A DNA stretch of 63,519 bases from a virus. Its lineage: Duplodnaviria; Caudoviricetes. Below are positions 1,234-50,318 of the stretch, in pieces. The translations under genes and the position numbers were made by a program. Within the stretch, counting starts at the first letter, position 1, and every line of letters begins with the position of its first letter. A model generated the notes under the pieces. The model had not been told where the DNA came from, did no database searches, and was given only the letters and a program-made list of their open reading frames with translations. The stretch spans positions 1 through 63,519 of IMG/VR virus record IMGVR_UViG_3300022602_003808. One strand, given 5' to 3'.

Positions 1234-1761
1234 TTATATAAGTTTTCTAAGAATAGCAATAGAAAAGTCAAAAGCATTATTAGCTTCTTCAGCTAAATCT
1301 GGTGTTGCTGCTTCTCTAATTTTTAAAATTAGACCTCTTACATCATCAAATCTAAACCATTTAGCACCGCCAGGTACTTTATTTTTAAGTGTTTGACCAC
1401 CAAATAAATCCCCCATATGTCTAACATAAACGTGTGACATTACCTTTTTAGGGTCGGCGAGCTCGTTTAAATAGTTTACATATGTAATGGTTTCAGGTAA
1501 AAGAGGAAAAGTACTAATTGATAATTCGTCTTCTAGTTCTTTTCTATCTTCTTTAATTCTAGCTGAACGCTCGATACCTGGAAAGTCTTTAAGCGTACCT
1601 AAACTATTAGCTTTGTTTTCAAGTGCTTCATACAGTGCATCCATTTGCACTAAATAGTTTAAATACTGTTCTTTAGTAACTGTTTTATTAAACACAGCAT
1701 CCAAAAATGGAAGCTTATCGGCAATATCGTGCTTTGGTTGTGTTAATTCTCTTAATGTCAT
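1234..1761 (-). CDS. ho1: Heme oxygenase
   Basis: LRELTQPKH (proximal His) and HVYVRHMGDLFGGQ distal-helix motif. Likely start is MTLREL at 1761. Confidence 0.9.
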   Translation of the reverse strand: MTLRELTQPKHDIADKLPFLDAVFNKTVTKEQYLNYLVQMDALYEALENKANSLGTLKDFPGIERSARIKEDRKELEDELSISTFPLLPETITYVNYLNELADPKKVMSHVYVRHMGDLFGGQTLKNKVPGGAKWFRFDDVRGLILKIREAATPDLAEEANNAFDFSIAILRKLI

Positions 1762-1765
1762 AACC

Positions 1766-3004
1766 TTATTTAACAATAAACTCTTTTAAATCAATTTTCC
1801 AGCCATTTATATAGTCACTCATTATAGTTTCACCGTGAGTCCAATAAGTTAATATTTTACCTTCTTTTTCACATAATTTAGCATAATTAACAAACGAGCC
1901 AGAAGCTTTTAAGCTTTCTACTGCTTTGAGTCTTGTTTGTATCCAATACTCGCTTTGAATTTTGTTAGGGCTAGCATAATGTAAGGCGATTAAATCTAAC
2001 ATTTGTGTTATATTGTATGAGTATCTTTCATTAAAATCAAGAGTTACATCAGCAAAGTTTCTTTTACCAGCCAAGCATTCCATTACTATAGGTAGTATAT
2101 TAGTCAAATAAGTACAGTAAAAGTGTAATGGCATAGACATAGCAGGCTCAAAAAAATGTAATCTATTACCCATATATAAAATTCTATTGTCTATAGCTTT
2201 TTTCCTGTAATATTGTTTCCAGTTTAATCTTCTTAAAACAGAGGCGTCTATATTTTTTAGTTCTGAAAAATGTTCAATTGCTTCTTTATCTGTAGTAATA
2301 TTATTATTATAAAGATACCCCCAAGTTTTTCTATGTTGTAGCGGTATACCAAACATCCAACCATTTTTATGTATATGAGCAGAGGTATACGTTTCATTAT
2401 ATGTTTTATATTCAGGATTTAAAATAACACTATTAACTGCAGCAAAATCTACTGTATTGTATGTACCGCTATTTAATTCTTCTGTAGAAGGGGTACCACG
2501 ACAGTCAATTAAAAAATCGTACACATATGCGTTGTTTTGACTTTTTAAAGTAACTTTATTTTTATCTTGCGATATATTAATAATATTATCTTTTATAACA
2601 TTAAAATTAGAAAACTTTTTAACAAGTTCATTTAAAACATAAAAACTAAATGTTTCGCTATTAAAATGTAAACCGTTATGAAAATGACGGATTATAAAAT
2701 TATTATCATTTGCGGGTTCCCAAAAATAACGCGCACCCCATTTAACAGTGCCATTGATTTTAGGAAGGTCTTGTATTATACAAAAATCCAGCACTTCAAA
2801 CAATGCTTTGTATACAGCAATAGAAGAGCTTTCTCCAACTTGAATAGTCGGGGTGTTTGGATCGTATATGCAATCTATTGTAAGATCAGAATTAGCTATT
2901 AACAGGCTTTTGCGTTTTTTTAGAACGTTAAGATGGCTGTATAAGTCTAATAAAGCAATAGAACTTGCTGTACCGGCACCTAATACACATATTTTTACAC
3001 TCAT
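1766..3004 (-). CDS. Flavin-dependent tryptophan-halogenase-like protein (short form)
   Basis: GAGTAS, VGES, GTVKWG, IDCRG, GWMFGIPL and FFEP motifs. Confidence 0.8.
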   Translation of the reverse strand: MSVKICVLGAGTASSIALLDLYSHLNVLKKRKSLLIANSDLTIDCIYDPNTPTIQVGESSSIAVYKALFEVLDFCIIQDLPKINGTVKWGARYFWEPANDNNFIIRHFHNGLHFNSETFSFYVLNELVKKFSNFNVIKDNIINISQDKNKVTLKSQNNAYVYDFLIDCRGTPSTEELNSGTYNTVDFAAVNSVILNPEYKTYNETYTSAHIHKNGWMFGIPLQHRKTWGYLYNNNITTDKEAIEHFSELKNIDASVLRRLNWKQYYRKKAIDNRILYMGNRLHFFEPAMSMPLHFYCTYLTNILPIVMECLAGKRNFADVTLDFNERYSYNITQMLDLIALHYASPNKIQSEYWIQTRLKAVESLKASGSFVNYAKLCEKEGKILTYWTHGETIMSDYINGWKIDLKEFIVK

Positions 3005-3070
3005 AATTATATATAATTATGCTCAGCATTAGATTTATCTAAGAAATCCAAATTTATGGGTAATTTATTT

Positions 3071-4588
3071 TTACGACACCGGACACAGATTACCAGGGGT
3101 AGTAATCTTTACACTACCATCTAAAACACTGCTTAAAAATTTGCTATGCCTTACAGTATATTGTTTACGTGCAGCTTCTTTAAGTTGCGCTAATTGTTCA
3201 GATAGTGCCCGGGCTTCATCATACCTATTTCTTAAAATTAAAATATCTTTAATTGCTTGTTTATTAAATTTACCTAACCCGTAGGATATTGGTGTAAAAT
3301 TAGTATATGTAAACATTACTTCTTCAGGAAAATTATATTTTGTAGTGTAAGAGCAGCTAAGCTTTTCTTCTAAGTCTTTTACTTTTTGAGGTGTGGTGTT
3401 GGTCATATACTCCCAAAACTTTGAATCTGTTCTACCAGTGGTATAACAAAATCTTATATAAAGGTATATATTTTCTATTACATCGTTTTGCTCTCGATTG
3501 TATTTGCTGCGTTCAAACTCTAATAATTGAAAATTGTATATTCTATAAAGTGCAAATAATTGAGTTATTGTATGATGTATATTAGTAGCTTCTAAGGGTT
3601 CAGCAAAACTGCTTGCTAAACCTACTACGACGCAATTACCGACCCATTGTTTTTCCCAATAACCACTTTCAAATTTTATAATTTTATCTTTATTAGTGGG
3701 TAATCTGTTATAATTTTTTTGCGTAAGTTTTGTAAAATCTTCAAACGCTTCTTCATCTGTTGCAAAATGAGATGAATAAACATACCCAGTACCATATCTA
3801 GTCTGCAAAGGTACCTGCAGTGCCCAGCCGTGTGTAGTAGCTTCTGCAACGCTATAACAGGGTAAATTTTTATCTATACCATTTAATGGTAAGGGGCTAG
3901 GTATAAATCTATTTACAGGCAATTCGTTGCTTTTGTTTATCCACCTATTAGGTAGTTTTTTCATTAATACAGAATCTAAGCCAGTCGCATCAATATAAAG
4001 ATCTGCAGATAAATTACCGTTTTTTTCTAAAACTAGATTGGTAATTTTATCTGCATTAACAATTATATTCAATACTTTATCATCTAGTATTTTAATTTTA
4101 GTTTTTGCTTTTTCTAGAACATAATTATTAAAAGCAAGAACATCAAAGTGTAATGCAAATGCTTGAGTATTAATGTCAGGTAACATATTGTTCTCCATAT
4201 ACCAAGGAGAATACATAACATCTAAGTCATATCGATCGTTAATAATATCATATGCTGCAGCTAAATTTTCATAAGTAGGAGCAACTCTAGATGCTACGTC
4301 TAAGTGATTAAACGAATGCCAGTGATGCTTACCGTTGTTCAGCCAATTTTTAAATTTTATACCAAGTTTTATAGTAGCATTACAATGTTTAATTAATTCA
4401 ATAGTTGTAATACCCACTTCTCTTAAAAATTGATGTATTTTAGGTGTTAAGCTTTCTCCTACACCAATACTGGGTTTGCTATGATCAAAGATCAGAACAA
4501 TCTCTGCAGCTGCACCGTAATGAGTATTAGCTAGCGCGGCCGCCATAATGCCAGCTGTTCCTCCACCAACCACAATAATTCGTTTCAT
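3071..4588 (-). CDS. Flavin-dependent tryptophan-halogenase family protein
   Basis: GGGTAG, GVGES, ATIKLGIKF (catalytic Lys), IDATG, GWALQVPL and FAEPLEAT motifs. Confidence 0.9.
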   Translation of the reverse strand: MKRIIVVGGGTAGIMAAALANTHYGAAAEIVLIFDHSKPSIGVGESLTPKIHQFLREVGITTIELIKHCNATIKLGIKFKNWLNNGKHHWHSFNHLDVASRVAPTYENLAAAYDIINDRYDLDVMYSPWYMENNMLPDINTQAFALHFDVLAFNNYVLEKAKTKIKILDDKVLNIIVNADKITNLVLEKNGNLSADLYIDATGLDSVLMKKLPNRWINKSNELPVNRFIPSPLPLNGIDKNLPCYSVAEATTHGWALQVPLQTRYGTGYVYSSHFATDEEAFEDFTKLTQKNYNRLPTNKDKIIKFESGYWEKQWVGNCVVVGLASSFAEPLEATNIHHTITQLFALYRIYNFQLLEFERSKYNREQNDVIENIYLYIRFCYTTGRTDSKFWEYMTNTTPQKVKDLEEKLSCSYTTKYNFPEEVMFTYTNFTPISYGLGKFNKQAIKDILILRNRYDEARALSEQLAQLKEAARKQYTVRHSKFLSSVLDGSVKITTPGNLCPVS

Positions 4589-10512: not shown

Positions 10513-11238
10513 TTATTTAGTATCTCGCTCCGCGGAAGCTACAAAGTCATAAAATTCTTTACGAGTTTGTGGTTCGTTCATAAAATCCCCGGATAACTTA
10601 GAAGTGATCATCGCACAACCGTGATGCTTTACACCACGATGGCAAGCACAGGTATGAGCGCATTTAAGAATAACCGCTACACCTTGATTACCGGTACAGA
10701 GTTGATCAATTGCTTTATGTATCTGAACAGTTAAGCCTTCTTGAATTTGAGGGCGGCGAGCGTAATGCTCTACAATACGATTAAGCTTAGATAGACCAAT
10801 AACTTGACCGTTTTTATCTGGTAAATAAGCTACGTGAGCAACACCAGTAAAAGCTAAATGGTGATGAGAGCACATAGACACTACAGGTATGTTCATTTGA
10901 CTAACAATACCATCATAACCGTCTGATGGGAATGTAGTAATCTTTGGTGGGCCTTCATAACAGCCTTTAATAAGATCACATACATATGCCTTAGCTACAC
11001 GACGTGGTGTATCAGCACTATTGACGTCATTACGCCAGTCAATGCGTAGAGCATCTAAAAAGGTTGAATACGCCTCAGTTGCCTTATCGATAATTGCTTT
11101 CCTATCTTCTTCTGTAGTAATCATACTACTATTGGCAGTAGGAAGGGTTGGGTGTTTAATTTCGTTTAACATATTAAATGATTTCACAGACTTAAATCTT
11201 TCGCCCGTGGTATAACTCTGATTTGTTGTTGATTCCAT
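10513..11238 (-). CDS. folE: GTP cyclohydrolase I
   Basis: TPRRVAK, SMCSHH, GLSKLNRIV, RPQIQE and HTCACHRG. Alternative start at 11172. Confidence 0.96.
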   Translation of the reverse strand: MESTTNQSYTTGERFKSVKSFNMLNEIKHPTLPTANSSMITTEEDRKAIIDKATEAYSTFLDALRIDWRNDVNSADTPRRVAKAYVCDLIKGCYEGPPKITTFPSDGYDGIVSQMNIPVVSMCSHHHLAFTGVAHVAYLPDKNGQVIGLSKLNRIVEHYARRPQIQEGLTVQIHKAIDQLCTGNQGVAVILKCAHTCACHRGVKHHGCAMITSKLSGDFMNEPQTRKEFYDFVASAERDTK

Positions 11239-14360: not shown

Positions 14361-14666
14361 CTATGATTTTAATATCTTTCTCACTACTTTGCTACGGCAA
14401 AGATTGGAATTGTACTTGAGAAATAGTAGTATTGCTTCTCTTTCACTATCAGTATCAGTTAATTCCATAAAAATCTTACGATACAATTTATTTTTGACTA
14501 TTAGTGAAAATATGGTAACGTTATTAAGTTTCTTATTATATATAACCGAACAAAATGAACCGAACTTAATAAGCTCAATTTCAAGCTCATCTCTAGCCAC
14601 TTGGCTTAGAGGGTTTTCTAGAACTGCTTCTTGTAATGCTCCTACTATACCAGACATATTACGCAA
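14361..14666 (-). CDS. Hypothetical protein
   Basis: ORF in the replication operon. Confidence 0.6.
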   Translation of the reverse strand: MRNMSGIVGALQEAVLENPLSQVARDELEIELIKFGSFCSVIYNKKLNNVTIFSLIVKNKLYRKIFMELTDTDSEREAILLFLKYNSNLCRSKVVRKILKS

Positions 14667-15570
14667 CAGGCGTGAGTAGTTTGGTGAAATTCATAAAAGC
14701 TTCTGTAACTTTTCCACCCGCTGCGTATTCGTGACCTCCCCCATCACATAATTTTGCAGCTAACTTTGATAAGTCTACTTCACATTTCTTATTTTTGCGG
14801 AACGATACGTGTGAGTTATCTGCATTGACAAAAAATACAATGTCAGCTGGGTGGGTGTTTAACATATGATCGCAAATTTCGTTAACAAATTTATTACCGT
14901 GAGTGCCATACACTACACGCTCTTTTCCTGCTACTGATACTTTACCTGCAAATAATTGCAAATCAGATATAGCTTTATTTTTACGGTCTACGAATTCTTT
15001 TATTATGGCTTTTTCTTGCCTGTTAAATGGTATAAAACCATCAAAGTACTTCTCTAAAAATAATTCAGCTCGGGCTTTTGTAGAGGTTTTTTGAGTATTG
15101 GTGTAAAGACAGTTCAGTTCGTATGATTCTGGTAGTTTAAACTGATAGCAATCGTAATCATCTGCTAAGGCAATAAAATACTTTTGCTCTGATTTTAGTT
15201 TAACTTTATCTTTATACGTATTGTAAATTAATTTTGCACAGCTTGTTGTTTCTACAACAGTTACTTTAGCGTTTTTATAAACATTTAAAGCTTTAACGTG
15301 AGTAAGATGATGGTCTATAATTTCTATATTTTTTCTGTCAACTAAATCTGCGTGCTTAGAAATGTCTAAGTCTAAAATATAGATTTTGTCAAAATCATTA
15401 ATATTGTTTTGATCTAACCAGGTTAAAAACTCTCTACGAAAATTCGATACAGTAGTTGTTTTAAAAGCAATCTGGCCTGGTTTAGCACCAAGTGCCCAAT
15501 GTAACATTGTTAACGAGGCAACTCCGTCTAAATCAAAATCGGTAAAAACGTATATCTTGTTAAAGCTCAC
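14659..15570 (-). CDS. DHH/DHHA1 phosphoesterase
   Basis: DFDLDG, ILD, IDHH, SFR and GGGH..AAG. Confidence 0.9.
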   Translation of the reverse strand: MSFNKIYVFTDFDLDGVASLTMLHWALGAKPGQIAFKTTTVSNFRREFLTWLDQNNINDFDKIYILDLDISKHADLVDRKNIEIIDHHLTHVKALNVYKNAKVTVVETTSCAKLIYNTYKDKVKLKSEQKYFIALADDYDCYQFKLPESYELNCLYTNTQKTSTKARAELFLEKYFDGFIPFNRQEKAIIKEFVDRKNKAISDLQLFAGKVSVAGKERVVYGTHGNKFVNEICDHMLNTHPADIVFFVNADNSHVSFRKNKKCEVDLSKLAAKLCDGGGHEYAAGGKVTEAFMNFTKLLTPVA

Positions 15571-18523: not shown

Positions 18524-19444
18524 TTATTGACGAGGAAACTTAAAATAAGGATGTTTTGCATTAATAAGGTTCTTATCTAAGAGTTTCTTGCTTGAAGCAC
18601 GAGTCGGTACAATATCCCAACCGCCACGACGAGCGTAGAAACAAGTTACTAATAGTTCATCTGGTTCTAATAAGTCCCAAAGACGTTTATAAGCAGCTTC
18701 ACATATTTCTTCGTGGAAGTGACATTCATTACGGAATGATACGATCCATTCTAATAAAGACTTTTCCGTAACAGCTTTAGATCCTTTATAGTAAATGAAA
18801 ATATCACCTGAATCTGGTTGCTTTGTAATCTTACAGTTAGAACGTAACAATGTACTCATACAGCGGTACGATACATCAGTAATTTGATCGTTTACCTGTA
18901 ATAGCTTTGCATCTTCATTAAATACAGTAAACTTAATCTTTTCTGCTCCTTTAGTCTTTTCTAATACAGGCCAAGCTACTTCACTGTAATCTTGCTCCCA
19001 GGCTGTACGCCAGCTTTCATTTTCACTGTCTAACACTTGAGGGAATAGCTCTACCTTAACATCAGTCTCTAATAATAAAGATAAGTCTTTAGAAGCTGTT
19101 TGTTTAATGTTCTTAAGTACTTCTTTAGTGTTCTTACCCATTTTCTGCATATTAAATGAGTTCCAGTATAGCTTCATTGACTTAGACTCTACAATGAAAT
19201 CGTTTTCAGCAGAATAAACTACTTTAGCAACACAAGTAACGGGTAAACCGTTATCTGTTAATGCACTACATTCATAACCGTTCCAAATGTCGTAACCTAC
19301 GAAAGGTAAGAAACCGTTCTTAAGATCAAGATGGGTACGGTTACGTTGGCGCTCTTCACGCACCAAAATCTCTGGTGTGTAAGTGGTAGGAGAGTCAACT
19401 CTCTGACCAAGTACTTTGTCAATATTATTAGTATTATAGCTCAT
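18524..19444 (-). CDS. queF: NADPH-dependent preQ0 reductase (bimodular QueF)
   Basis: VESKSMKLY QueF motif, SNCKITKQPD (catalytic Cys/Asp), FHEE and YARRGG. Confidence 0.95.
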   Translation of the reverse strand: MSYNTNNIDKVLGQRVDSPTTYTPEILVREERQRNRTHLDLKNGFLPFVGYDIWNGYECSALTDNGLPVTCVAKVVYSAENDFIVESKSMKLYWNSFNMQKMGKNTKEVLKNIKQTASKDLSLLLETDVKVELFPQVLDSENESWRTAWEQDYSEVAWPVLEKTKGAEKIKFTVFNEDAKLLQVNDQITDVSYRCMSTLLRSNCKITKQPDSGDIFIYYKGSKAVTEKSLLEWIVSFRNECHFHEEICEAAYKRLWDLLEPDELLVTCFYARRGGWDIVPTRASSKKLLDKNLINAKHPYFKFPRQ

Positions 19445-20009
19445 TGGTGAAATCTTTCTTTATCTCTGTAATTACTTTATTAGTTCTTTCTTCTACTGTA
19501 CCTGATACATAAACAAGTTTATCAGTAGGCATTGAAAAATGCTTTAAGTAAAAATCAAACTGTTTTACAACTCCGTCAAAAAACTCTTTACCTGTACTTC
19601 TCTCTCCATCATCTTTGATATCAAGTTCGGGTACAACATAAAAAATCTTATCGTATACCTTTAATAGTTCTTCGTAAACTGATAAAGCTGCTTGATATAC
19701 ATCCTTATTAACCTGTCCTTTTTCATAAAAATAAGTAGTATATGCAATACCATCTAAAGCACCTCTATCTAAGATCCAGTTACCTGGAGTTAAACCATAC
19801 TCTAAATGTCTAGCCATTACCAAGTATTGAGTTAAAGAAGTACCACCTTCATTGATAGGTACATTTAAGTCTTTAAGACCTCTAGTTAAGTTAGTTCTAA
19901 AAGAAAAATGATTATCATCTAAAAACGATTCATTCTTTAGAGCTTTTACTAAAGTAGTTTTACCTTGTGAATGAGCACCGCAAATAGCAGCCTTATAGTT
20001 TGTTCTCAT
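19434..20009 (-). CDS. P-loop nucleotide kinase-like (AAA_28/NadR-thymidylate kinase fold)
   Basis: GAHSQGKTT, ILDRGALD and DDGER. Confidence 0.8.
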   Translation of the reverse strand: MRTNYKAAICGAHSQGKTTLVKALKNESFLDDNHFSFRTNLTRGLKDLNVPINEGGTSLTQYLVMARHLEYGLTPGNWILDRGALDGIAYTTYFYEKGQVNKDVYQAALSVYEELLKVYDKIFYVVPELDIKDDGERSTGKEFFDGVVKQFDFYLKHFSMPTDKLVYVSGTVEERTNKVITEIKKDFTNEL

Positions 20010-20590
20010 AGTTTATTATTTAATAGGCTTTTACGCATAAAGCCAACCCAATTTTCAATAGCTAGTTTATGCAATCTTACAATATAGTCATTTAAACTAT
20101 TAAATTCTTTGTAGATACTTTCACTATAAAACTCTTTCTCTGACACTACTTTACCTGCATCTACTTCCGGTATTACTTCGTGAATAACGTGTCCGTGTAG
20201 CTTATATGGCTTTTCGAAATGCTTATACCACACTTTAGCTTGCGGGTCTTTACCCTTTAGTTCAGGAAACTTAGTTATAAGACCCGGATGTCCATTGTAT
20301 ATCCTGAATCTACCGCAGATCTGTGGTGGTAATATACGAAGATAACCGTGAAGTGTAATTATATCAGCGTTTCTTATAGCTTCTTTATATTCTTCTACGG
20401 TTGGTTTCTTAGGTAAGAATATAAAACGATCAAAACATCTCTCTAGAAGATCAGGATTAATTTTATCCATTTCTTCAAAACTTTTGTTAGTTATGATTGC
20501 ATCCGGAAACCTACCGATATTTTTAGATATCTCATATATCTCAGACCCGCTCTGAGAGAAGAATGTTTTCCATATTAAGGTACGTTTCAT
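20006..20590 (-). CDS. PurN-like formyltransferase, probable preQ1 formyltransferase (DpdN-like)
   Basis: FSQSGSE, LHGYLRIL, YNGHPGL and IHEV..EVDAG; located between the DpdA-like gene and queF. Confidence 0.85.
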   Translation of the reverse strand: MKRTLIWKTFFSQSGSEIYEISKNIGRFPDAIITNKSFEEMDKINPDLLERCFDRFIFLPKKPTVEEYKEAIRNADIITLHGYLRILPPQICGRFRIYNGHPGLITKFPELKGKDPQAKVWYKHFEKPYKLHGHVIHEVIPEVDAGKVVSEKEFYSESIYKEFNSLNDYIVRLHKLAIENWVGFMRKSLLNNKL

Positions 20591-20817
20591 ATTTTTAGAC
20601 GATACCCTATTGTATTATCACTAAAGAAAATTACAAGCGTAAAGTCAACAATACCGTGTTTTATTAGATAAGGTTTGACGTCGGATAATTCTCTTACCGG
20701 GAGTTCTTGATTACGAATACAATCCCAAAAATAATAATCCCTAATAAAAACAGAATCTGCCAGGAGGTGGGGATAATTAGCATATACAGAGTTGGTTATG
20801 GCTTCTAATGTTGTCAT
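20587..20817 (-). CDS. Hypothetical protein
   Basis: 76 aa, coupled by ATGA overlaps on both sides. Confidence 0.7.
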   Translation of the reverse strand: MTTLEAITNSVYANYPHLLADSVFIRDYYFWDCIRNQELPVRELSDVKPYLIKHGIVDFTLVIFFSDNTIGYRLKI

Positions 20818-21620
20818 CCATTAACGTAATTTCTAAACTCAATTAAATTATTTGCAATAATTCTCTCTTGTATTTCATCTGGTACTACATCTAAAAGGTC
20901 TACAAGTTTGGTAGATTCTTTCTTCCAGTTACCTATTGCGTGAGAATATCTCACTCTTTTAATACCGTGTACAATAGGAGAAGAGGTGTCTAGTGTTTCT
21001 ATCCAGTTATATTCAGGACCTTGATAGAAACTAAACTCTCTAGGGTGTGCGCAACCTAGTAAATGGTGAGGTTTGTCTTTATTAATAATACCATCGTTCA
21101 TTAATTGAGTTAAAGTTATTACTCTACCCATCATATAAGATACCCATTTGTTAGGATGAGGGAATAGTTTGAGATAATAAGAGTAGTCAAATGAAATAGC
21201 TAACTTATCTACATCTATCTCTTGATCTAAAGTTACATAACATTTAACTAGCTCTGCGTAGGTTTTACCCTGTACTACACCAATAGTTTTAGAATCGTTA
21301 ACAAAGTCCCATTCTCTCCATAAGCATTTCTTGGCAGATTCAATCGTACCGTTGCAGTCTTCTAATACATCTGGTATGATATATTCTGTAGGGTTAAGCT
21401 TCTGTATCCAGTATGCATAACGTTTAGGATCAAAAGCTTCGCCGAGTTCGAATGTTGAGCAATCTAATAAAACGTGTCTACCCATCGCTACACTATCTTC
21501 AAAGAACTTGTAATAACTTGGTATTTCTTCGAACAAATGCGTTAAAGCGTAGTCGTAACAGTTATACGTACGGGATATTTCAAGCATACTCAAAGGCGAT
21601 TCGTGAGATATTTTAATCAT
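20814..21620 (-). CDS. dpdA: TGT-fold deazaguanine transglycosylase (DpdA-like)
   Basis: VLLDCSTFE (DSGGF-like), IIPDV, GVVQG, HLLG and LDTSS. Start is MIKISHE at 21620. Confidence 0.8.
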   Translation of the reverse strand: MIKISHESPLSMLEISRTYNCYDYALTHLFEEIPSYYKFFEDSVAMGRHVLLDCSTFELGEAFDPKRYAYWIQKLNPTEYIIPDVLEDCNGTIESAKKCLWREWDFVNDSKTIGVVQGKTYAELVKCYVTLDQEIDVDKLAISFDYSYYLKLFPHPNKWVSYMMGRVITLTQLMNDGIINKDKPHHLLGCAHPREFSFYQGPEYNWIETLDTSSPIVHGIKRVRYSHAIGNWKKESTKLVDLLDVVPDEIQERIIANNLIEFRNYVNG

Positions 21621-21621
21621 A

Positions 21622-24183
21622 TTAAGAGAACATTTCAAATAGGTCTGTTGTTACTTCGTTAGTTAAATCTGGTAACCGCCAGCCAATAGCTTCATATACA
21701 GCTAATATAGGCGGTTTAATTATTGTATTGAACATTTCAATATAATCTACTTGAAAATCGTTAAATTCTGGTGGAAAGTTGTAAGGGTAGCAAAGAGTAT
21801 CAATGTTATACTTGTTTGGTGCAATATAAATCTTCTTTACTTTACCACCAGAAGTAATACGTTCATACTTCGTTTCTAAATGTAAGTGCTTCAATAACTG
21901 ATTATACCAAATAGCACCTTTAACGTGATTAGGTGTACCTGTGCCTATTTTAAATCCATCTGCCTTAACTTCGTATTTCTCTAAATCGCTAAGACCGCCA
22001 CGGATTGCAATTTCATCTACATTAAGTACTTTAAATGCATCATAAACCTCTTTGTAAAGACTGTTTGCCTTTATTTGATCCTGACCTAGCAGAGAGTTCT
22101 CAATAACCTTCTTAATCAGTTCTTTTGCTTTCTTCGGCGTGGTAGATCTAGCGATTTCAACACCAACATACTTAAACTTATTAACGTTTGCACCTTCATC
22201 GTTTAATACGTGAATAATATAACGTTTCTTCTGTAGATAAACACCTACATCGCAAATCGATTCTCGTTTAAAGAAGTAACGAGGATCAACAGATTTAAAC
22301 TCAGAAGCAGACCACTTTTTAATTTCACTATTTAAATATGTACCAATCTCTTTATCAATTAAATCTATACCTTCTGGCGTTACTTTACCGTCAGCAAATA
22401 ACTTTACCTTAAGCTTATCAACAATTGGTTGAATAGTGATGTGAGTGCTGTCAGTGTCACCATATATATTAAGAGAAACGTTAACATTGTATCTTTCTTT
22501 AGCATATGTATCAAGGATAACACCTGCCTGCTTAACCACTGACTGGCCAGTAAGAGTAATACTACCGGCGTGATCACTATCGCAAATAGGACTAAACTTG
22601 TTAGCAAAAACACCGTAAATAGAATTAAGAAGAATCTTAATGACGTGCTGTATGGTGTCAGCTCGTTCCATATTAAACTTACACGCTTTGTGTTCATCTG
22701 TGTCTGGAGTTAGATTACTTAGCTGTTTCTTATATTCAATGTACTGATTCTTATTTCTTACACGTTCACTGTAAAGACTATCAATTAACGAAGGTACAAC
22801 ACCTTTCTTTTTCTGAGTATACAAAACGTTAGCTTTAGATATAGAAAGTTTTTCTATCTCGACTAGTTTATTAAACTTTTCGTGAGAAATAGTAAAGTCT
22901 TTACCGCTAACCATTAATAATGTAACATCAGTATCAGTCTTCTTAATAATCTTACCCAGTTTAGTTTCTGGTGAAATATTTAAAGTAATGATAGTGTTAG
23001 GGTATAGAGAGTTAGCGTCATAGCTAACAATAGATGTCTTTAAGCCACGCTCTGGATCTCTAACATAACCACCTTCAATTTCATCTCTAGTGGGCCCCGA
23101 AACGAAAGTAGGTATGACCATACCGTGCTTGTATGCTTCTAATGCAACACAACCAGTAACAATGGATACTTTACCTAAAGCAGCTTCAAAGCTAGTTAAA
23201 CCTTTATAAGCTAACATACGAATGATTTTAAAAAACTGTAGTTTCTTTTCCATTCGTACAAGTAGATCAACGTCTTGAATATTATAATCTACAAAGTTAT
23301 TCCAATCGTTTTCAGATAGAGAAGCTAAATTAGTAGCATTGATAGCTAGTTTACCTTCACCTAATTCGTGTTGTGCAACAAAGTTTAGTGCATATGATTC
23401 TAACAGACCACGTGCAAAGCCTTTATAAACTTCAAGATAGTCCATTGCTGATATACCGTGAATGTACCAACGATCTAACTCTTGACCTTTAACAAAGATA
23501 CCTTTACGGCACCAAAGACTCTTTAACGGTGATAAGCGTTTAGCTGCATTTTCACCTAATAAGTTATTAATACGGTTAATAGTATAAGGAAAGTCGAAAA
23601 AGTCTGTGTTCCACCCGGATAATATGTCTGGGTAGTAATCGTTCTCCCAAAACTCTAAAAACTTATTGAGTAGATCTACTTCACTAGAGCATTCCGTATA
23701 TACAACGTTTTTACGAGACGGGGTATAGGGTTTACAGCCCCAGGTATAAAACGTTTCAGATAAGTTGTCGTATATCGTTATAAGGTTAATAGGGTGCTTA
23801 GCATCCTTAGCTTCAGGAAACTCATCTGGAGAATAAACTTCGATATCAAGAAAACAAACCTTTAATGGGTTAGCAGAAAACTCAGGCTTTTCGTAATCGT
23901 CTTTATACTTCTCAATAAGAAACTGCTGTTCTACCTGAATGTTATGATATAAACGTTTGATAGCACCGTCTTGTGCAGATTTGTTACGTTCAAACGCATT
24001 CTTAAATACTTTCTTCTTTAACTTAGTATTAAAGATAGATATAGCATCGTGATTATCTTGATTAGTCTCTACATAAAAATAGGGACTATAGATCTCTTTC
24101 TTAACAGTCCTATTACCGTTTTTATCCCAGGTAAATAGGTATGCTATAGATTCGCGTGAGTTATAATATACGTTACGATACAC
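21622..24183 (-). CDS. Family B DNA polymerase gp43
   Basis: DIEV, GWN..FD, YNIQD, DANSLYP, KILLNSIYG and YGDTDS. Promoter TTGATT-16-CATAAT at 24191-24218. Confidence 0.97.
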   Translation of the reverse strand: MYRNVYYNSRESIAYLFTWDKNGNRTVKKEIYSPYFYVETNQDNHDAISIFNTKLKKKVFKNAFERNKSAQDGAIKRLYHNIQVEQQFLIEKYKDDYEKPEFSANPLKVCFLDIEVYSPDEFPEAKDAKHPINLITIYDNLSETFYTWGCKPYTPSRKNVVYTECSSEVDLLNKFLEFWENDYYPDILSGWNTDFFDFPYTINRINNLLGENAAKRLSPLKSLWCRKGIFVKGQELDRWYIHGISAMDYLEVYKGFARGLLESYALNFVAQHELGEGKLAINATNLASLSENDWNNFVDYNIQDVDLLVRMEKKLQFFKIIRMLAYKGLTSFEAALGKVSIVTGCVALEAYKHGMVIPTFVSGPTRDEIEGGYVRDPERGLKTSIVSYDANSLYPNTIITLNISPETKLGKIIKKTDTDVTLLMVSGKDFTISHEKFNKLVEIEKLSISKANVLYTQKKKGVVPSLIDSLYSERVRNKNQYIEYKKQLSNLTPDTDEHKACKFNMERADTIQHVIKILLNSIYGVFANKFSPICDSDHAGSITLTGQSVVKQAGVILDTYAKERYNVNVSLNIYGDTDSTHITIQPIVDKLKVKLFADGKVTPEGIDLIDKEIGTYLNSEIKKWSASEFKSVDPRYFFKRESICDVGVYLQKKRYIIHVLNDEGANVNKFKYVGVEIARSTTPKKAKELIKKVIENSLLGQDQIKANSLYKEVYDAFKVLNVDEIAIRGGLSDLEKYEVKADGFKIGTGTPNHVKGAIWYNQLLKHLHLETKYERITSGGKVKKIYIAPNKYNIDTLCYPYNFPPEFNDFQVDYIEMFNTIIKPPILAVYEAIGWRLPDLTNEVTTDLFEMFS

Positions 24184-34319: not shown

Positions 34320-34811
34320 ATGGATTTAGGCCATTGGACTACAAATGAAAATATTGACAATGATAATTTACCTTACGGGTTTATATATCGTATTATTAAC
34401 ACCGTGTCTGGTAAAATATATTTTGGAAAAAAACAAATTAAAAGCGTTAAAAAACTTAAACCTCTCAAAGGAAGAAAAAACAAAAGACACTTCGACATAG
34501 AGACGGATTGGAAATCTTATACTTCATCTTCTAACGACGTTAATGAAGATATAGAGAGGTTAGGCAAAGACAAATTTAAGTTTGAAATAATACGTTTTTG
34601 TGATAGTAAGTTTGAATTAGCTTATTATGAAGCTAAAATACAGTTTGATCATAATGTTTTGCTTAAAGAAGGATACTACAACGGTATTATAAATTGCCGT
34701 ATCGGAAGAGCACCAAATGCGTTGTTAAATAAGCTTGCACAACAGGAGAATAGTACTACAATAACAAATAATGCAGCTCAAAGAACTCAAATACAATCTT
34801 TATCTTGCTGA
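34320..34811 (+). CDS. GIY-YIG (Seg-like) nuclease-family protein
   Basis: GFIYRIIN...KIYFGKK, WKSYTSSS and YYN. Confidence 0.75.
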   Translation: MDLGHWTTNENIDNDNLPYGFIYRIINTVSGKIYFGKKQIKSVKKLKPLKGRKNKRHFDIETDWKSYTSSSNDVNEDIERLGKDKFKFEIIRFCDSKFELAYYEAKIQFDHNVLLKEGYYNGIINCRIGRAPNALLNKLAQQENSTTITNNAAQRTQIQSLSC

Positions 34812-37159: not shown

Positions 37160-37624
37160 ATGAGTAAATTTATTTCTACTAAAGTTATACCGTTAGGTTC
37201 TTGTGCTTTTCGTCAACCCTATGCAACTAGCCATTGCAAGTTTATACACGGCTATCGTTTGCAGGCTAAGTTTTGGTTTAGTTGTGACAAATTAGATCAA
37301 AATAACTGGGTAGTAGATTTCGGTTCTTTAAAACCACTTAAAGCTCAATTAGAAGAAATATTTGATCACAAAACAGTTGTTTGGTCAAAAGACCCGCAAA
37401 TAGATATCTTTAAATTATTAGAAGCACAGGGTATGGTAGAGTTAGTTACACTAGATGATGGTGTTGGTATTGAGCGATTTGCCGAACTTTGTCATAAAAT
37501 GGCTAATCAACACGTAAAAGACCTGACTAACGGTCGTTGCTGGTGTTCTAAAGTAGAAGTCTGGGAACACGAAGGAAATAGCGCAATTTATAAAGATAAA
37601 CTACAAACAGAGTGGAAAAGCTAA
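37160..37624 (+). CDS. queD: 6-carboxytetrahydropterin synthase
   Basis: SHCKFIHGY, VVDFG, FDH and EVWE. Promoter TTGAGT-16-TACTAT at 37127-37154. Confidence 0.93.
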   Translation: MSKFISTKVIPLGSCAFRQPYATSHCKFIHGYRLQAKFWFSCDKLDQNNWVVDFGSLKPLKAQLEEIFDHKTVVWSKDPQIDIFKLLEAQGMVELVTLDDGVGIERFAELCHKMANQHVKDLTNGRCWCSKVEVWEHEGNSAIYKDKLQTEWKS

Positions 37625-37645: not shown

Positions 37646-38452
37646 ATGTCTAATATTGACCCTAATACAACTTTATTCATTTCAGATGATTTCGTATTCT
37701 ATACTCTAGAAGGTGAAGGTCGTTACATTGGCTATCCTTCAGTGTTTATGAGAATGGCAATGTGCAACTTAACGTGCATAAATTTCAAGAGTGAAGACTC
37801 GCCTTTCGGTTGTGATAGTTACATAAGCTGGTCTAAGAAAAATAAAATGACATTCGAAGAAGTAGCACAACTCTTTGAAAAGAATGATTATCACGAGCGC
37901 TTAAAACAAGGTGCTTTGTTAAAGTTAACCGGCGGTGAACCTTTTATTCAGCAAAAGAACTTATTACTGTTTGTTAAGTTTATTAGAGATCGTTGGGGGT
38001 TTCAAAACTACAGCAGAACATTAACAGTGGAAGATGTTGGTAAGCCTACATTACATATAGACTTTGAAACTAACGGTACCATTATGCCAGATGAAGAGTG
38101 GTCTTGTCTTGGTGTACGGGTAACATATACTACTTCTCCTAAACTATCTAGTAATGGAGATCCTGTTGAAAAGCGTTATAAACCAGAAGTATTACGTTAT
38201 CTAGCTGTACACGATGCTTGCTTTAAGTTTGTAGCTAAACAAGAATCAGACTTAAATGAAGTACTAGAGAATTATCTCAATAATCCTGAAGTAGCTGTAC
38301 GTTCAGATCAAGTATGGATTATGCCTTGCTGTGGTAGCCGTAAAGAATTACTAGAAGTAGGGCCTGTAGTGGCTGAACTCTGTAAGAAATATAATTTTAA
38401 GTTCTCTAACAGAATGCACTTGCAGGTCTGGGATAAAGCACTTAAGGTTTAA
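37646..38452 (+). CDS. queE: 7-carboxy-7-deazaguanine synthase (radical SAM)
   Basis: TLEGEG, CNLTC-x11-CD, TGGEP, ETNG, SPK and RMHLQVW. Confidence 0.95.
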   Translation: MSNIDPNTTLFISDDFVFYTLEGEGRYIGYPSVFMRMAMCNLTCINFKSEDSPFGCDSYISWSKKNKMTFEEVAQLFEKNDYHERLKQGALLKLTGGEPFIQQKNLLLFVKFIRDRWGFQNYSRTLTVEDVGKPTLHIDFETNGTIMPDEEWSCLGVRVTYTTSPKLSSNGDPVEKRYKPEVLRYLAVHDACFKFVAKQESDLNEVLENYLNNPEVAVRSDQVWIMPCCGSRKELLEVGPVVAELCKKYNFKFSNRMHLQVWDKALKV

Positions 38453-38884: not shown

Positions 38885-39601
38885 ATGAGTCACTCTAAAC
38901 TTAATAAAATCGGCATTATTGGTACACAATGCATTGGCAAATCTACATTGGTAGATGATATGATACTGCAATGGCCGCAATTATGTAAGTCACAAAAAAC
39001 GTACCGCGATCTTATTAAAGAAAAGAAACTACCTGTTAATAAAAACGGTACCAAAGAATCTCAACAAGCCATACTTAACTTTCTCGTTGATGAAGCAATG
39101 GCTAATTACGGCAATAAAAAAATGATTTTTGACCGTACACCTATTGATAATTTAGTTTATTCTTTATGGCTCTACGATAAGGGTGTAACAGATATTGATG
39201 AGGATTTTATTGATAAATCAATTATACAGGCTAAAGAAGCAATTAAATCTTACTCTATAATTTTCTATATTCCTCTCACTAAAGAAAATGACGTACTCCT
39301 TCAGATTAAAGAGAATAGAGATATTGATCCTATTTATCGCGGAGAAATAGCAGTACTATTTGATACTATTTATAGGGCCTGGGAATCTGGTGCTTCGCGT
39401 TTCTTTGATACTGAAGATCGCACACCTATTATACCTTTATACGGTACACCATTAGAGCGTATAGCAATGGCTAATCTTTATATTAACGAAAAATGTGAAT
39501 TTTTCGGTGAAGAAGATTCTTTAATTAAAGGAGATATTGCTGAACAACAAATGCTTGCTGACCAACTAGGATTAACGGATAAGAAACAGTTTAAATTGTA
39601 G
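38885..39601 (+). CDS. Second P-loop nucleotide kinase-like (AAA_28) protein
   Basis: GTQCIGKST and IFDRTPIDNLVYS. Confidence 0.8.
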   Translation: MSHSKLNKIGIIGTQCIGKSTLVDDMILQWPQLCKSQKTYRDLIKEKKLPVNKNGTKESQQAILNFLVDEAMANYGNKKMIFDRTPIDNLVYSLWLYDKGVTDIDEDFIDKSIIQAKEAIKSYSIIFYIPLTKENDVLLQIKENRDIDPIYRGEIAVLFDTIYRAWESGASRFFDTEDRTPIIPLYGTPLERIAMANLYINEKCEFFGEEDSLIKGDIAEQQMLADQLGLTDKKQFKL

Positions 39602-39616
39602 TAAGTATTGTATTAT

Positions 39617-40258
39617 ATGAAATTCGATGATGCTATTAACTATATTGCTGAGTCCACACTTAATGCGGAAATGGCTCGGCATAAAAATCTTGCTGTACTT
39701 GCAAGAGCAGCTGAACTTGAAAAGAAAGGTCTTTCACCTTCTACTGCAAAAGCTTACGCCTGGAAAGAATTAAGAGCTGGTAAGCTAGGTAGCTCTTCTG
39801 AACCAATAGCTGTTGAACCTGCAGCTGATGAACCATCGAAGCCTGTAGCAGGTTTTAAGCGCTCTACAGAAGCATTAAGAGCTAAAGAACAGGTTGAAGA
39901 CTTTTTAGAATTCAATCGTTCTGCTACTGCAGAAGATGTTGCTGTAGCTCTTGATCTTGATCCTGAATTAGTAAATTCAGTGTATGATGATGCTAAGAAT
40001 GAGATTAAAAATGTAAAAACTTCAGAACCCAGTGAAGAACCTGGTGAAGAAGAAGTAAAAGATCTCGAAAAAGATAAATTAGCTCGTATTAGAGATCAAA
40101 TTATGAAGCTACGCGGGCTCAAAGGCAAACACAAGCACGTAAAAGCACCAAAAGATATTGATGCATCTACAGATGATGATGAATTATCCCCAGCTGTTGA
40201 TCCTGACATTCAAGACTACGTAGGTCGTACTGGTGGTAGTGTTGATCAAGAAAATTAA
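39617..40258 (+). CDS. Hypothetical acidic late protein
   Basis: TAAGTA at 39602, then MKFDDAINYIAE. Confidence 0.7.
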   Translation: MKFDDAINYIAESTLNAEMARHKNLAVLARAAELEKKGLSPSTAKAYAWKELRAGKLGSSSEPIAVEPAADEPSKPVAGFKRSTEALRAKEQVEDFLEFNRSATAEDVAVALDLDPELVNSVYDDAKNEIKNVKTSEPSEEPGEEEVKDLEKDKLARIRDQIMKLRGLKGKHKHVKAPKDIDASTDDDELSPAVDPDIQDYVGRTGGSVDQEN

Positions 40259-40704
40259 AGATACTTTTCGGTAAGAATAATAAACTTCATACCTTTTTTA
40301 GCCGCGTAATCACTCGCGGCTTTCCATTTGGCTTGATTCTTGTGCCACATTAACTGTTCATACAACACAGTACTAGATTTCTTTTTAGTAGACTGCACTG
40401 GTGGTTGTGTTTGAGCGTGTGGTTTAAGTTCAATTAAATATTTTTGTACATTACCGTCTTTGTCCTTGATTGCTGCAATTAAGTCTACATAATAGTTGTG
40501 TACTTTATTATCTATTTCACTGTAATACGGTACAACAATGCCCTCGCTTGCCCAGGCGGTAACGTTAGAATTTTGATCAAAAAACAAAAAGAAGTCTCTT
40601 TCTAATGCAGATCTATAAACAGGATTCGACGAACCCATATATTTATTTTTATTAATAGGGTTATAAATTCCTTGAATAAACTTGCTATTTTTAGGGTACC
40701 CCAT
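40255..40704 (-). CDS. Head completion protein gp4 (TnsA-like fold)
   Basis: YNPINKNKY.G, YRSALE, WASE, YYVD, IELKP and NQAKWKAA. Confidence 0.92.
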   Translation of the reverse strand: MGYPKNSKFIQGIYNPINKNKYMGSSNPVYRSALERDFFLFFDQNSNVTAWASEGIVVPYYSEIDNKVHNYYVDLIAAIKDKDGNVQKYLIELKPHAQTQPPVQSTKKKSSTVLYEQLMWHKNQAKWKAASDYAAKKGMKFIILTEKYL

Positions 40705-42534: not shown

Positions 42535-43257
42535 ATGTCAAAAGCACTAGTCATATTATCAGGCGGTATGGATAGTACCGTATTATTACATTATGTAACT
42601 AAGACTCTTAGTTATGATGAAGTTTATGCTGTAACGTTTAACTACGGGCAACGGATTGCTAGAGAGATTGATTGTGCTAGATTCCAAGCTAAAGTGTGTA
42701 GTGTTAAAGAACATAAAGTTATTGATATGGATTTCTTTAGAGATATCTCTACGATGTCAGCTTTAACTAATACAGACTTGAAAATACCTAAAGCTAAAGA
42801 TGATATTGGTAATGCACAACCTTTAAGCTATGTCCCGTTCAGAAACCTATTACTATTAACAAGTGCAGCAGGTTGGGCTGAATCTATTAATGCACAAGAC
42901 CTGTTTTATGGTGCAGTAGAAGTCGACGATCACAGTGGCTATTGGGATTGCACGACAATGTTTCTAAATAAAGTTAATGACATTTACGGTCTTAATCGCA
43001 AGAATACTATTAAAGTTAATGCGCCGTTTATGCGCTATTCTAAAGAGGAAGTAATTAAGACCGGTATTGACTTACAGGTAGACTTTAGACAAACACACAC
43101 CTGTTATGAAGGTACTGATCCTGCTTGTGGAGAATGTGTGTCGTGTGCTGCACGTATTAAAGGTTTTATTGACAACAAAGCTATTGATCCTATTAAATAT
43201 TCACGTAATATTCCTTGGGAACAATATGATTGCAAACCTTTAACCTATTTAACATAA
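42535..43257 (+). CDS. queC: 7-cyano-7-deazaguanine synthase
   Basis: SGGMDST, YGQR, YVPFRN and CY...CGECVSC..R. Promoter TTGAAT-16-TATTAT. Confidence 0.96.
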   Translation: MSKALVILSGGMDSTVLLHYVTKTLSYDEVYAVTFNYGQRIAREIDCARFQAKVCSVKEHKVIDMDFFRDISTMSALTNTDLKIPKAKDDIGNAQPLSYVPFRNLLLLTSAAGWAESINAQDLFYGAVEVDDHSGYWDCTTMFLNKVNDIYGLNRKNTIKVNAPFMRYSKEEVIKTGIDLQVDFRQTHTCYEGTDPACGECVSCAARIKGFIDNKAIDPIKYSRNIPWEQYDCKPLTYLT

Positions 43258-43258
43258 T

Positions 43259-43915
43259 ATGTGCGGTATAGCTGGTTCAAAATATAAAGATAAAGCTTTT
43301 AATTTATACAAAGATAATCTTGCAAGAGGTTATTATAGTTCAGGTGCATTAACATTAGACTCTAATGACCAATACCACGTACACAAAACTGAAGGTATTT
43401 TTAATGAACCTATAGACTGTTTTAACCCGCCGGGTATAGACACTCGCGGTCGTTACTTTTTATATCATTCCCGTGGCCCTACTGTTGAAACAAAATCATT
43501 TGAAGCGATAAACAATCACCCGTTCATTTATGGTGATTGGATAGTGGCTCATAACGGTATTATCAGTAATTTTGAGAGTTTATGTAGAGAGTATTTTCCT
43601 GACGAAGATTTTACCGGTAGGACAGACAGCTGTATTATACCGCGTATGTTAGAAATAAAGATAAAAGTATCAGAAGCTATGGAATCTCTTAAAGGTACAT
43701 ATGCTATATGGGCTTTTAATAGCAAACACAAAAAAACCTATTTAGCTAGAAGTGCAAGTACACTATTTGCAAATCCAATTACGGGATGTTTTTCGTCTAC
43801 TGAATTTGAAGGTAGTGAATCCTTAAACGAGGGGATTGTTTATGCAATACAGGATTACGATTGTATAGTGCCTGCTGGGAGATTTAAGCATAAATCTCCG
43901 TACTTTATATTCTAA
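43259..43915 (+). CDS. Stand-alone class II (Ntn) glutamine amidotransferase
   Basis: N-terminal MCGIAG, ARG, HSR.PT, NHPF, AHNG and TDS. Confidence 0.9.
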   Translation: MCGIAGSKYKDKAFNLYKDNLARGYYSSGALTLDSNDQYHVHKTEGIFNEPIDCFNPPGIDTRGRYFLYHSRGPTVETKSFEAINNHPFIYGDWIVAHNGIISNFESLCREYFPDEDFTGRTDSCIIPRMLEIKIKVSEAMESLKGTYAIWAFNSKHKKTYLARSASTLFANPITGCFSSTEFEGSESLNEGIVYAIQDYDCIVPAGRFKHKSPYFIF

Positions 43916-45302: not shown

Positions 45303-45884
45303 ATGATTATCAAAGACCAAACTATCTATAACGGCGATTTTATTCACAAGCGTTTTGCTTATAAGTATTTTAGAGATAAGACTCTAGCTGTAGGTAACAT
45401 TGTTAGCTATGTCGCGCCTGTAGAAGTTACAATAAACCTTATTGACTTAGAGGATTCTCTAGAGAAAGATTATATCTATAGTGATTCTATGATTAACTTC
45501 TGTTGGGAAATACCTAACTTAGATCCATTCGGTGCAGTTTGTTTTCAGCGCCTGTTTAATACAGCAATTGCTAATATTTTACACACTTATATTAAGAAAC
45601 CTATCGAAATGAAAGGCGATGACTTAATTGTACACGCTGAACATAATCAAGGCGGTATTGTACAACAGAAAGGTAAAGCTTCAGTTAGCATTACATACTC
45701 TAAAGACAATGTAGCTATTGGCCACACCGGTATTAATATTAGTGCTGGTAAGAAAGCTCCTGCTTTTGCGTTTAGTACTAACCTTTCACCTACAGATGCT
45801 GAGAAGTTTCAATTACAGGTACATCAACAATTCTATCAAATGGTAGACAATATATTTGTAGCTACTGCTAAGGTAATTGTTTAA
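45303..45884 (+). CDS. DUF366-family protein (biotin/lipoate ligase-like fold)
   Basis: YNG..IH..FAY, LIDLED, IYSDSMINF, FQRL, GDDL, KASVSI and GHTGIN. Confidence 0.75.
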   Translation: MIIKDQTIYNGDFIHKRFAYKYFRDKTLAVGNIVSYVAPVEVTINLIDLEDSLEKDYIYSDSMINFCWEIPNLDPFGAVCFQRLFNTAIANILHTYIKKPIEMKGDDLIVHAEHNQGGIVQQKGKASVSITYSKDNVAIGHTGINISAGKKAPAFAFSTNLSPTDAEKFQLQVHQQFYQMVDNIFVATAKVIV

Positions 45885-50144: not shown

Positions 50145-50147
50145 TAT

Positions 50148-50306: not shown

Positions 50307-50318
50307 ATATTATAAAGT

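Follow-up and report, generated by a model that had tools for sequence, protein, structure and literature searches.

A kinase gene accompanies DpdA3 in phages with 7-deazaguanine DNA and suggests that guanine may be exchanged before replication

How does a phage come to replace every guanine (G) of its DNA by a 7-deazaguanine derivative? The question is raised by a locus in the window analyzed here, a stretch of 63,519 bases that makes up the whole of the IMG/VR virus record IMGVR_UViG_3300022602_003808 and that comes from an uncultured T4-like phage. At positions 18524-24183 of the window, six genes follow one another on the minus strand in the order polB (a family B DNA polymerase), DpdA3 (a predicted guanine transglycosylase with the fold of tRNA-guanine transglycosylases, or TGTs), an open reading frame (ORF) of 76 amino acids (aa), DpdN (a PurN-like formyltransferase), a P-loop nucleos(t)ide kinase, and QueF (a preQ0-to-preQ1 reductase). 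The cassette is not new: by homology, it is a member of the already described DpdA3/DpdN 7-deazaguanine system, and taken by itself it is an ordinary further example, but the question that it raises is how DpdA3 phages attain complete replacement of G. A sequence-only reading of the window had proposed that the base is exchanged on the free nucleotide, which is then phosphorylated by the kinase and incorporated by the polymerase. A broad comparison among related phages points to a swap of this kind ahead of replication but falls short of proof; we hold exchange at the level of the nucleotide to be somewhat likelier than exchange on DNA.

Enzymes of the cassette and their predicted product

The genes of the run are packed with no room for signals between the ORFs. 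The stop codon of polB (TAA, 21624-21622) lies 1 nucleotide (nt) from the DpdA3 start codon (ATG at 21620), and the remaining junctions overlap by 4, 4, and 4 nt and then, between the kinase gene and queF, by 11 nt, which bears out both the coupling of all six genes and the coordinates previously given for them. The leading gene, polB (21622-24183), encodes a T4 gp43-like polymerase with PF00136 and PF03104 domains (phrog_262, E 2.5e-189). DpdA3 (20814-21620) has 268 aa from its ATG, the usual length among its homologs; the ORF listing extends it to an alternative start, a TTG at 21638.

DpdA3 has no Pfam or NCBIfam match. Since sequence searches against solved structures gave nothing significant for DpdA3 or for the kinase, fold searches were needed for both. 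An AlphaFold2 model of DpdA3 built on 50 homologs (pLDDT 95.9) finds TGTs as its best Foldseek matches in the Protein Data Bank (PDB), with an E value of 3.2e-9, a probability of 1.0, and a query-normalized TM-score of 0.64, in line with the TGT fold that had been read from the sequence. Across the 50 aligned sequences, the catalytic and base-stacking positions (D53 with F57, D84, H186-L-L-G189, and D211) vary little or not at all, and the invariant positions include D53, E58, P83-D84, R166, H186, L188-G189, D211, and P215. The best PDB match of the family profile, at an E value that is only 0.45 when taken alone, is the bacterial DpdA 7ui4, the segment HHLLG...DTSNP of DpdA3 aligning with HLLG...SIDSTTP. 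By this alignment, the HLLG and D211 motifs would correspond to the base-stacking Leu236 and the nucleophile Asp256 of 7ui4 (PMC10164549), and D53 and F57 may, on spacing alone, be the counterparts of Asp95 and Phe99. Because DpdA3 ends 57 residues past its nucleophile, it is without the 128-residue insertion of bacterial DpdA (Ins8, which bears the Phe265 wedge). Over 97 to 98% of its length, DpdA3 is 49% identical to the "DpdA" of Flavobacterium phage immuto and 41.7% identical to gp056 of Campylobacter phage CP220 (Firehammervirus), and the hidden Markov model of its family recovers gp042 of Cellulophaga phage phiST (E 1.4e-18), which we take to be CGPG_00065. On homology, fold, and motifs, we assign the 268-aa protein to the DpdA3 subfamily of TGT/DpdA transglycosylases.

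TGTs that act on tRNA carry a cysteine cluster for a zinc subdomain, and the alignment of 50 DpdA3 sequences contains no cysteine cluster. Neither this nor the presence of a formyltransferase, which has no place in the synthesis of queuosine in tRNA, fits a scheme in which these genes would raise the supply of host queuosine precursors and the TGT-fold protein would act on tRNA. Phage Que genes were once interpreted in such terms (Hutinet et al. 2019), but all three of the cultured DpdA3 phages that have been analyzed have fully substituted DNA (PMC10516641), and we find the tRNA scheme scarcely credible for this locus.

DpdN (20006-20590) matches PF00551 with 32.3 bits (cutoff, 26.1) and is 42% identical to the DpdN of immuto (YP_010114479). 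Its profile retrieves PurN structures first (3kcq, E 1.2e-14), before deformylases, sugar formyltransferases, and Fmt. N99, H101, and D144, invariant in 16 DpdN sequences, align with the NxHP and ELDxG motifs of PurN, and an N-terminal FSQ(T/S)GSE segment aligns with the xSGxGSN loop, whose Gly-Ser-Asn binds the phosphate of the substrate in PurN. As its score against TIGR00639 (36.1 bits) is far below the equivalog cutoff (150.1), DpdN is a PurN paralog and not PurN proper, the glycinamide ribonucleotide transformylase. It is encoded together with DpdA and the entire FolE-to-QueF pathway in the window. That such proteins formylate preQ1 in DNA had been put forward as known, which is an overstatement: Cui et al. 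2023 (PMC10516641) only predict DpdN to be a "preQ1 or dPreQ1 formylase." The choice left by this wording admits a different order, in which DpdN would formylate the free base preQ1 and DpdA3 would then insert formyl-preQ1 into a nucleotide or into DNA. Natural fusions of DpdA3 with DpdN (P0141 and P0248) are compatible with either order, and no dPreQ1 intermediate was detected in immuto DNA (PMC10516641). Formylation of the free base, to which we give little credence, has against it that DpdN is nearest to PurN, an enzyme acting on a phosphoribosyl-linked amine, and that it has kept the loop aligned with the Gly-Ser-Asn loop of PurN.

QueF (18524-19444) comprises two domains, PF14819 (94.7 bits) and PF14489 (67.4 bits). 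Against the Vibrio cholerae enzyme (3bp1, E 1.1e-33), it has kept the cysteine of SNCkITkQPD, the FHE motif, and ESKSxKLY and is thus catalytically intact, as had been stated from the sequence. With 217.6 bits against TIGR03138, under the cutoff of 293.45, it is a divergent member of its family.

We predict with high confidence that 7-(formylamino)methyl-7-deazaguanine (fdPreQ1, or formyl-preQ1) replaces most or all of the G in the DNA of the window phage, because gene order and 34 to 49% identities are shared with immuto, a fully substituted phage. The core order DpdA3-small ORF-DpdN-"thymidylate kinase"-QueF is the same, the kinases being 34% and the QueF proteins 42% identical, and both phages have the full preQ0 pathway. 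Liquid chromatography-mass spectrometry of immuto DNA found 345,000 fdPreQ1 per 10^6 nt and no deoxyguanosine (dG) peak (PMC10516641), which lends support to the formyl-preQ1 product and to the heavy or total replacement of G that the sequence-only reading had anticipated. A search for nanopore runs in which G-specific miscalls might show up listed none. The two phages differ in that the polymerase of immuto belongs to family A and is encoded three genes downstream, whereas polB is directly upstream in the T4-like window phage; in that the immuto cluster includes a MazG-like PRA-PH protein and a phosphoribosyltransferase (gp211), whereas no MazG or PRA-PH protein was found in the window; in that their small ORFs are not homologous; and in that the window phage has a second kinase paralog.

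A nucleotide kinase gene beside DpdA3

The kinase of the run (19434-20009) matches AAA_28 (40.7 bits) and phrog_2107 (E 8.7e-23), a family named "thymidylate kinase." This name is unsupported, as there is no curated Tmk match: the protein has no NCBIfam match, AAA_28 is its only Pfam match, and no solved kinase is matched in sequence. Its AlphaFold2 model (pLDDT 91.6) is about equally close to deoxyadenosine kinase, deoxycytidine kinase, thymidylate kinase (TMPK), and the ribosylnicotinamide kinase domain of NadR (E 6e-7 to 1e-5), and the matches listed include only small-molecule nucleoside or nucleotide kinases. The kinases adjacent to DpdA3 in immuto and CP220 are 33 to 34% identical to it. 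A paralog (38885-39601, plus strand; AAA_28; phrog_2107, E 1.2e-11) is placed one ORF-sized gap 3' of QueE and is 27% identical to the kinase of the run and 33% identical to gp057 of CP220; two kinases would fit two successive phosphorylations.

We surveyed 285 loci around DpdA3 homologs in IMG/VR and a phage collection and defined 58 lineages at 70% DpdA3 identity, 44 of which have at least 2.5 kb of sequence downstream. The kinase is present in 26 of these 44 lineages, in every case downstream of DpdA3, within 2.5 kb, and on the same strand; QueF is present in 26, DpdN in 22, and polB in 7. In a maximum-likelihood tree of DpdA3, the kinase occurs outside one derived clade in 30 of the 34 lineages for which its presence can be determined, CP220 included (4 lack it; contig ends leave another 4 undeterminable). 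It is also retained in DpdA3 lineages without DpdN. In CP220, DpdA3 is followed directly by the orthologous kinase (33% identity), and the pair has been kept between tail-sheath, homing-endonuclease, and tail-tube genes. CP220 lacks QueF and DpdN and makes dADG. A search of 50,697 phage records found DpdA3 in 19 of them and the kinase in 18 of these 19. Beyond the DpdA3 records, the kinase was found only in 54 Streptomyces phages (26 to 28% identity).

Where the P-loop kinase is missing, another kinase may have taken its place. In two of the four exceptional lineages (L123 and L179), an ORF of 84 to 87 aa with a DUF3310 domain (Pfam E 2.3e-12 in L123) lies exactly between DpdN and QueF, and a profile built locally from these ORFs aligns with residues 118 to 183 of T7 gp1.7 (44.9 bits). 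T7 gp1.7 is annotated as a nucleotide kinase and phosphorylates dGMP and dTMP (PMC11897194), and we propose that a gp1.7-like kinase domain replaces the P-loop kinase in both lineages. DpdA3 is, moreover, naturally fused to DUF3310 in P0210. Linkage, non-orthologous replacement, and fusion argue that the core partners of DpdA3 include a nucleos(t)ide kinase.

In the 54 Streptomyces phages, the distant kinase homolog lies directly 3' of a gene for a 263-aa "methyltransferase," and in one of them, Karimac (L134, 6207-7618), a MazG-like gene is found about 5 kb upstream. The pair may be another nucleotide-level modification module. The possibility that the Karimac "methyltransferase" is a hidden DpdA3 was rejected (hhalign probability 0.15).

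Complete G replacement has been reported for immuto (fdPreQ1), CP220 (dADG), and phiST (dDG) (PMC10516641). In each of these phages, DpdA3 is accompanied by a gene for an NTP phosphohydrolase and by one for a P-loop protein. A PRA-PH/MazG-like protein is encoded two genes upstream of DpdA3 in immuto and an HD+AAA_33 fusion directly upstream in CP220. In phiST, the order is MazG, one ORF, a small AAA_18 P-loop protein, and then DpdA3 (gp042), so that MazG lies three genes upstream; a DNA polymerase gene lies downstream. The resemblance of phiST to the window phage has its limits, as its DpdA3 is distant, its P-loop protein is not detectably related to the operon kinase (E 0.056), its polymerase is a Pol III alpha subunit, and it lacks QueC, QueF, and DpdN.

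The level at which guanine is exchanged

Our working model is as follows. FolE, QueD, QueE, and QueC would convert GTP to preQ0, the glutamine amidotransferase that adjoins QueC probably providing it with ammonia, and QueF would reduce preQ0 to preQ1. DpdA3, a minimal TGT fold with the aspartates of a double-displacement mechanism, would swap guanine for the deazapurine, and we infer that it does so on a free deoxyguanosine nucleotide or nucleoside and not on finished DNA. DpdN would formylate the aminomethyl group with a formyl-folate donor; the kinase, similar to deoxynucleoside kinases and TMPK and perhaps aided by its paralog at 38885-39601, would phosphorylate the exchange product, and the phage polymerase would make G-free DNA from the modified dNTP. 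The identities of the enzymes in this scheme come from homology and motifs; the level at which DpdA3 and DpdN act and the substrate of the kinase are our deductions.

Kinase linkage, non-orthologous replacement, fusion, and the nearby phosphohydrolases are what would be expected if a nucleotide kinase belongs to the DpdA3 pathway; exchange on completed DNA would pass through no nucleotide. We also count in favor of the nucleotide level that DpdA3-DpdN fusions exist and that DpdN is nearest to PurN, the substrate of which is a 5'-phosphoribosyl amine, with the Gly-Ser loop aligned. The pre-replicative route through the kinase, proposed earlier, has partial support of this comparative kind. In its full form, the proposal is that DpdA3 is not a DNA transglycosylase but the first TGT-fold enzyme to put a 7-deazapurine in the place of guanine in a free deoxynucleotide or deoxynucleoside, that DpdN formylates the nucleotide, and that kinases, P-loop or gp1.7-like, feed a guanine-free dNTP pool to the polymerase; we give this an even chance. 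If it is true, the TGT fold acquires a further substrate class, 7-deaza-dGTP analogs become accessible by a new enzymatic route, and the accepted rule that the presence of a DpdA implies post-replicative modification fails; it would also account for the fact that 100% replacement is reached by DpdA3 phages only. The comparative pattern, with a kinase beside DpdA3 that is replaced or fused and with phosphohydrolases near, is new evidence and makes the mechanism directly testable.

Two arguments for the pre-replicative route do not discriminate. Coupling to the polymerase had been cited, yet polB is near DpdA3 in only the 7 lineages mentioned above, and the DpdA1 gene of phage 9g lies two genes from a DNA polymerase gene although DpdA1 acts on DNA, where it replaces only up to 27% of dG (PMC6884629). 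Likewise, the small size and acidity of DpdA3 (mean net charge, -8.1) might be taken to preclude binding to DNA, but DpdA1 of 9g has 317 aa and a charge of -7.7. Size, acidity, and polymerase linkage are therefore common to DpdA3 and to a DNA-acting enzyme. The 9g cluster differs from the cassette in that it has no annotated kinase, and no 9g record appeared in the kinase search.

Several further observations weigh against exchange on the nucleotide. All characterized TGT/DpdA members, to our knowledge, act on a polynucleotide, and we know of no precedent for transglycosylation by a TGT fold on free nucleotides. The derived clade of the DpdA3 tree (19 rows; support, 100/100; stem length, 0.98) accounts for 14 of the 18 lineages that lack the kinase. 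Its members have neither QueF nor DpdN nor a kinase within 6 kb of DpdA3, and all 14 of its determinable lineages are kinase-less, so the kinase is not obligatory for the family. The clade is nested inside kinase-bearing diversity under midpoint rooting, a rooting that is unsure and places the root on phiST's very long branch. Among the 16 derived-clade loci, QueC, QueD, and QueE are found in 14 each, and genes resembling hypoxanthine-guanine phosphoribosyltransferase in 7 and MazG in 6, the last two named from reading the sequences and not from a family search. With phosphoribosyltransferases present in immuto, phiST, and the derived clade, the kinase could serve to recycle the released guanine or to feed dGTP synthesis. 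A search for longer, fused versions of the kinase scored none, which is weak evidence, and the gp1.7-like domain of the 84-aa ORFs may not suffice for the putative kinase activity. Finally, no HD, MazG, PRA-PH, or DCD domain was found in the window, which amounts to about 30% of a genome (CheckV), and no HD, MazG, or PRA-PH domain was found in four relatives (G001-G004) that are 39 to 65% complete, so a dGTP-clearing step appears to be missing in this lineage; a complete related record (G005) has one MazG, about 35 kb from DpdA3.

These points lend themselves to the published model, in which ordinary G-containing DNA is made, DpdA3 swaps every G in the DNA for preQ1, and DpdN formylates dPreQ1 in the DNA; the kinase would then be auxiliary, either recycling the large amount of released guanine with a phosphoribosyltransferase or boosting the supply of dGTP from the breakdown of host DNA. 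Cui, Hutinet et al. (NAR 2023, PMC10516641) propose that all 7-deazaguanine modifications are post-replicative, in accordance with the TGT/DpdA precedent. The catalytic residues of DpdA3 are the same as those of the DNA-acting bacterial DpdA: a TGT-like barrel, a general-acid Asp with a Phe four residues on, HxLLG, and a nucleophilic Asp are common to DpdA3, bacterial DpdA, and phage DpdA1. Besides the kinase-less clade and the want of a dGTP-clearing enzyme in the window lineage, phosphoribosyltransferase genes lie near DpdA3 in immuto (gp211), in phiST (gp064), and in 7 of the 16 derived-clade loci, and T7 gp1.7 normally serves the phosphorylation of ordinary dGMP and dTMP (PMC11897194). What tells against exchange on DNA is that it yields no nucleotide substrate in need of a dedicated kinase, hosts having a guanylate kinase of their own, and that a nucleotide kinase gene nevertheless stays by DpdA3 through changes of genomic background, non-orthologous replacement, and fusion. 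A need for dGTP would also be hard to reconcile with the MazG, HD, or PRA-PH proteins that neighbor DpdA3 in each of the three phages with full substitution. Bacterial DpdA, for its part, modifies a fraction of the G in DNA and needs the DpdB ATPase, and DpdA3 is without its Ins8/Phe265 wedge, which is weak evidence since phage DpdA1 is also short. We see in the published model an appreciable possibility that falls short of an even chance.

The idea that the polymerase uses a modified dGTP has a history. Hutinet et al. 2019 credit it to Crippen et al. 2019, who put it forward for Campylobacter phages, and it was set aside by Cui et al. 2023 once DpdA3 was found (PMC10516641); the latter authors tried to test DpdA3 in E. 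coli, without success. The word "kinase" is absent from the main text of their paper, which with its preprint is the only one among the relevant papers to contain "DpdA3" and "fdPreQ1," and our literature search found no paper putting forward a nucleotide-level DpdA3.

In the synthesis of hydroxymethylcytosine in T4 (gp42/gp1/gp56) and in Z-genome phages (PurZ/MazZ/DatZ), a modified dNMP is made, phosphorylated by a phage kinase, and used by a phage polymerase. By analogy, the logic of exchange on the nucleotide would be the same, and relatives of the window phage carry MazG or HD enzymes; the differences are that the base would here be changed by transglycosylation on a TGT fold and that the window yielded no enzyme for clearing the canonical dNTP.

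Genes for preQ0, other DpdA3 loci, and the remainder of the fragment

The four genes for preQ0 that had been reported elsewhere in the window were all located by family matches. FolE (GTP cyclohydrolase I; PF01227, E 2e-47) is encoded at 10513-11238 on the minus strand, and the others are on the plus strand: QueD at 37160-37624 (PF01242, E 8.8e-17); QueE, a divergent radical-SAM CDG synthase, at 37646-38452 (TIGR03963, E 4.4e-14, under the family cutoff; 23% identity to immuto QueE, blastp E 9e-14); and QueC at 42535-43257 (PF06508, E 3.5e-60). Directly 3' of QueC, after a one-base gap, lies a gene for a class II glutamine amidotransferase (43259-43915, plus strand; PF13522 and PF13537, with matches to the N-terminal domains of GlmS and PurF). 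It probably supplies ammonia to QueC, and a role in making another base is possible. The same split pair occurs in a related locus (L086), and the equivalent place in phage 9g is taken by a protein of 471 aa with the annotation glutamine aminotransferase, presumably a Gat-QueC fusion. A DUF366 protein (45303-45884, plus strand; PF04017, E 1e-20), which has no PHROG or NCBIfam match, is encoded about 1.4 kb 3' of the pair.

The 76-aa ORF (20587-20817) has no match in Pfam, PHROG, or NCBIfam. Its homologs are restricted to close relatives (65 of 133 loci), its crude pN/pS is 0.43 over 27 distinct copies, and immuto carries a non-homologous 50-aa ORF in its position.

The DpdA3 family counts 2,430 proteins at an E value of at most 0.001 and, with clustering at 50% identity, 1,327 representatives, and because it is this large, many phages in the environment may have DNA that is G-free or heavily modified at G. 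The derived clade corresponds to loci L211-L289 (for example, L238 and L266), and no cultured member of it was found. Other DpdA3 proteins have additional parts, such as a NUMOD3 homing-endonuclease tail in P0128, a 317-aa N-terminal part in P0173, and a 160-aa C-terminal part in P0251; neither the N-terminal part of P0173 nor the C-terminal parts of P0196, P0206, and P0251 have a Pfam or NCBIfam match, although P0251 may end in a GNAT-like motif, and the unassigned parts may hint at further deazaguanine derivatives. In L179 (6001-7660), tandem DpdA3 paralogs of 265 and 289 aa are followed by DpdN, DUF3310, QueF, QueC, and an ORF with a start that is MazG-like by eye, and the DpdA3 cassette of L123 is host to a homing endonuclease.

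The window has no end repeats and a G+C content of about 34%, rising up to 0.463 at 50001-52000, inside a 661-aa ORF (50319-52304). Its T4-like complement of genes includes a primase, UvsX, UvsY, and a UvsW-like helicase, Rad50-like and Mre11-like proteins, a gp32-like protein, and a DnaB-like helicase. Between the last two is encoded a 303-aa DHH/DHHA1 phosphoesterase (14659-15570, minus strand) with weak RecJ-like matches, which could release mononucleotides from oligonucleotides. Among the replication and Que genes are those for a SegE-like GIY-YIG endonuclease (34320-34811, plus strand; PF19835) and a TnsA-like endonuclease (40255-40704, minus strand; PF08722). At the start of the window, a heme-oxygenase-like ORF (1234-1776, minus strand; PF01126, E 1.5e-19) adjoins two tryptophan-halogenase-like ORFs on the same strand (1766-3004, PF04820, E 4.5e-31; 3071-4588, E 1.7e-81), with glycosyltransferases close by this 1234-4588 segment; homologs of flavin-dependent halogenases are unusual phage cargo.

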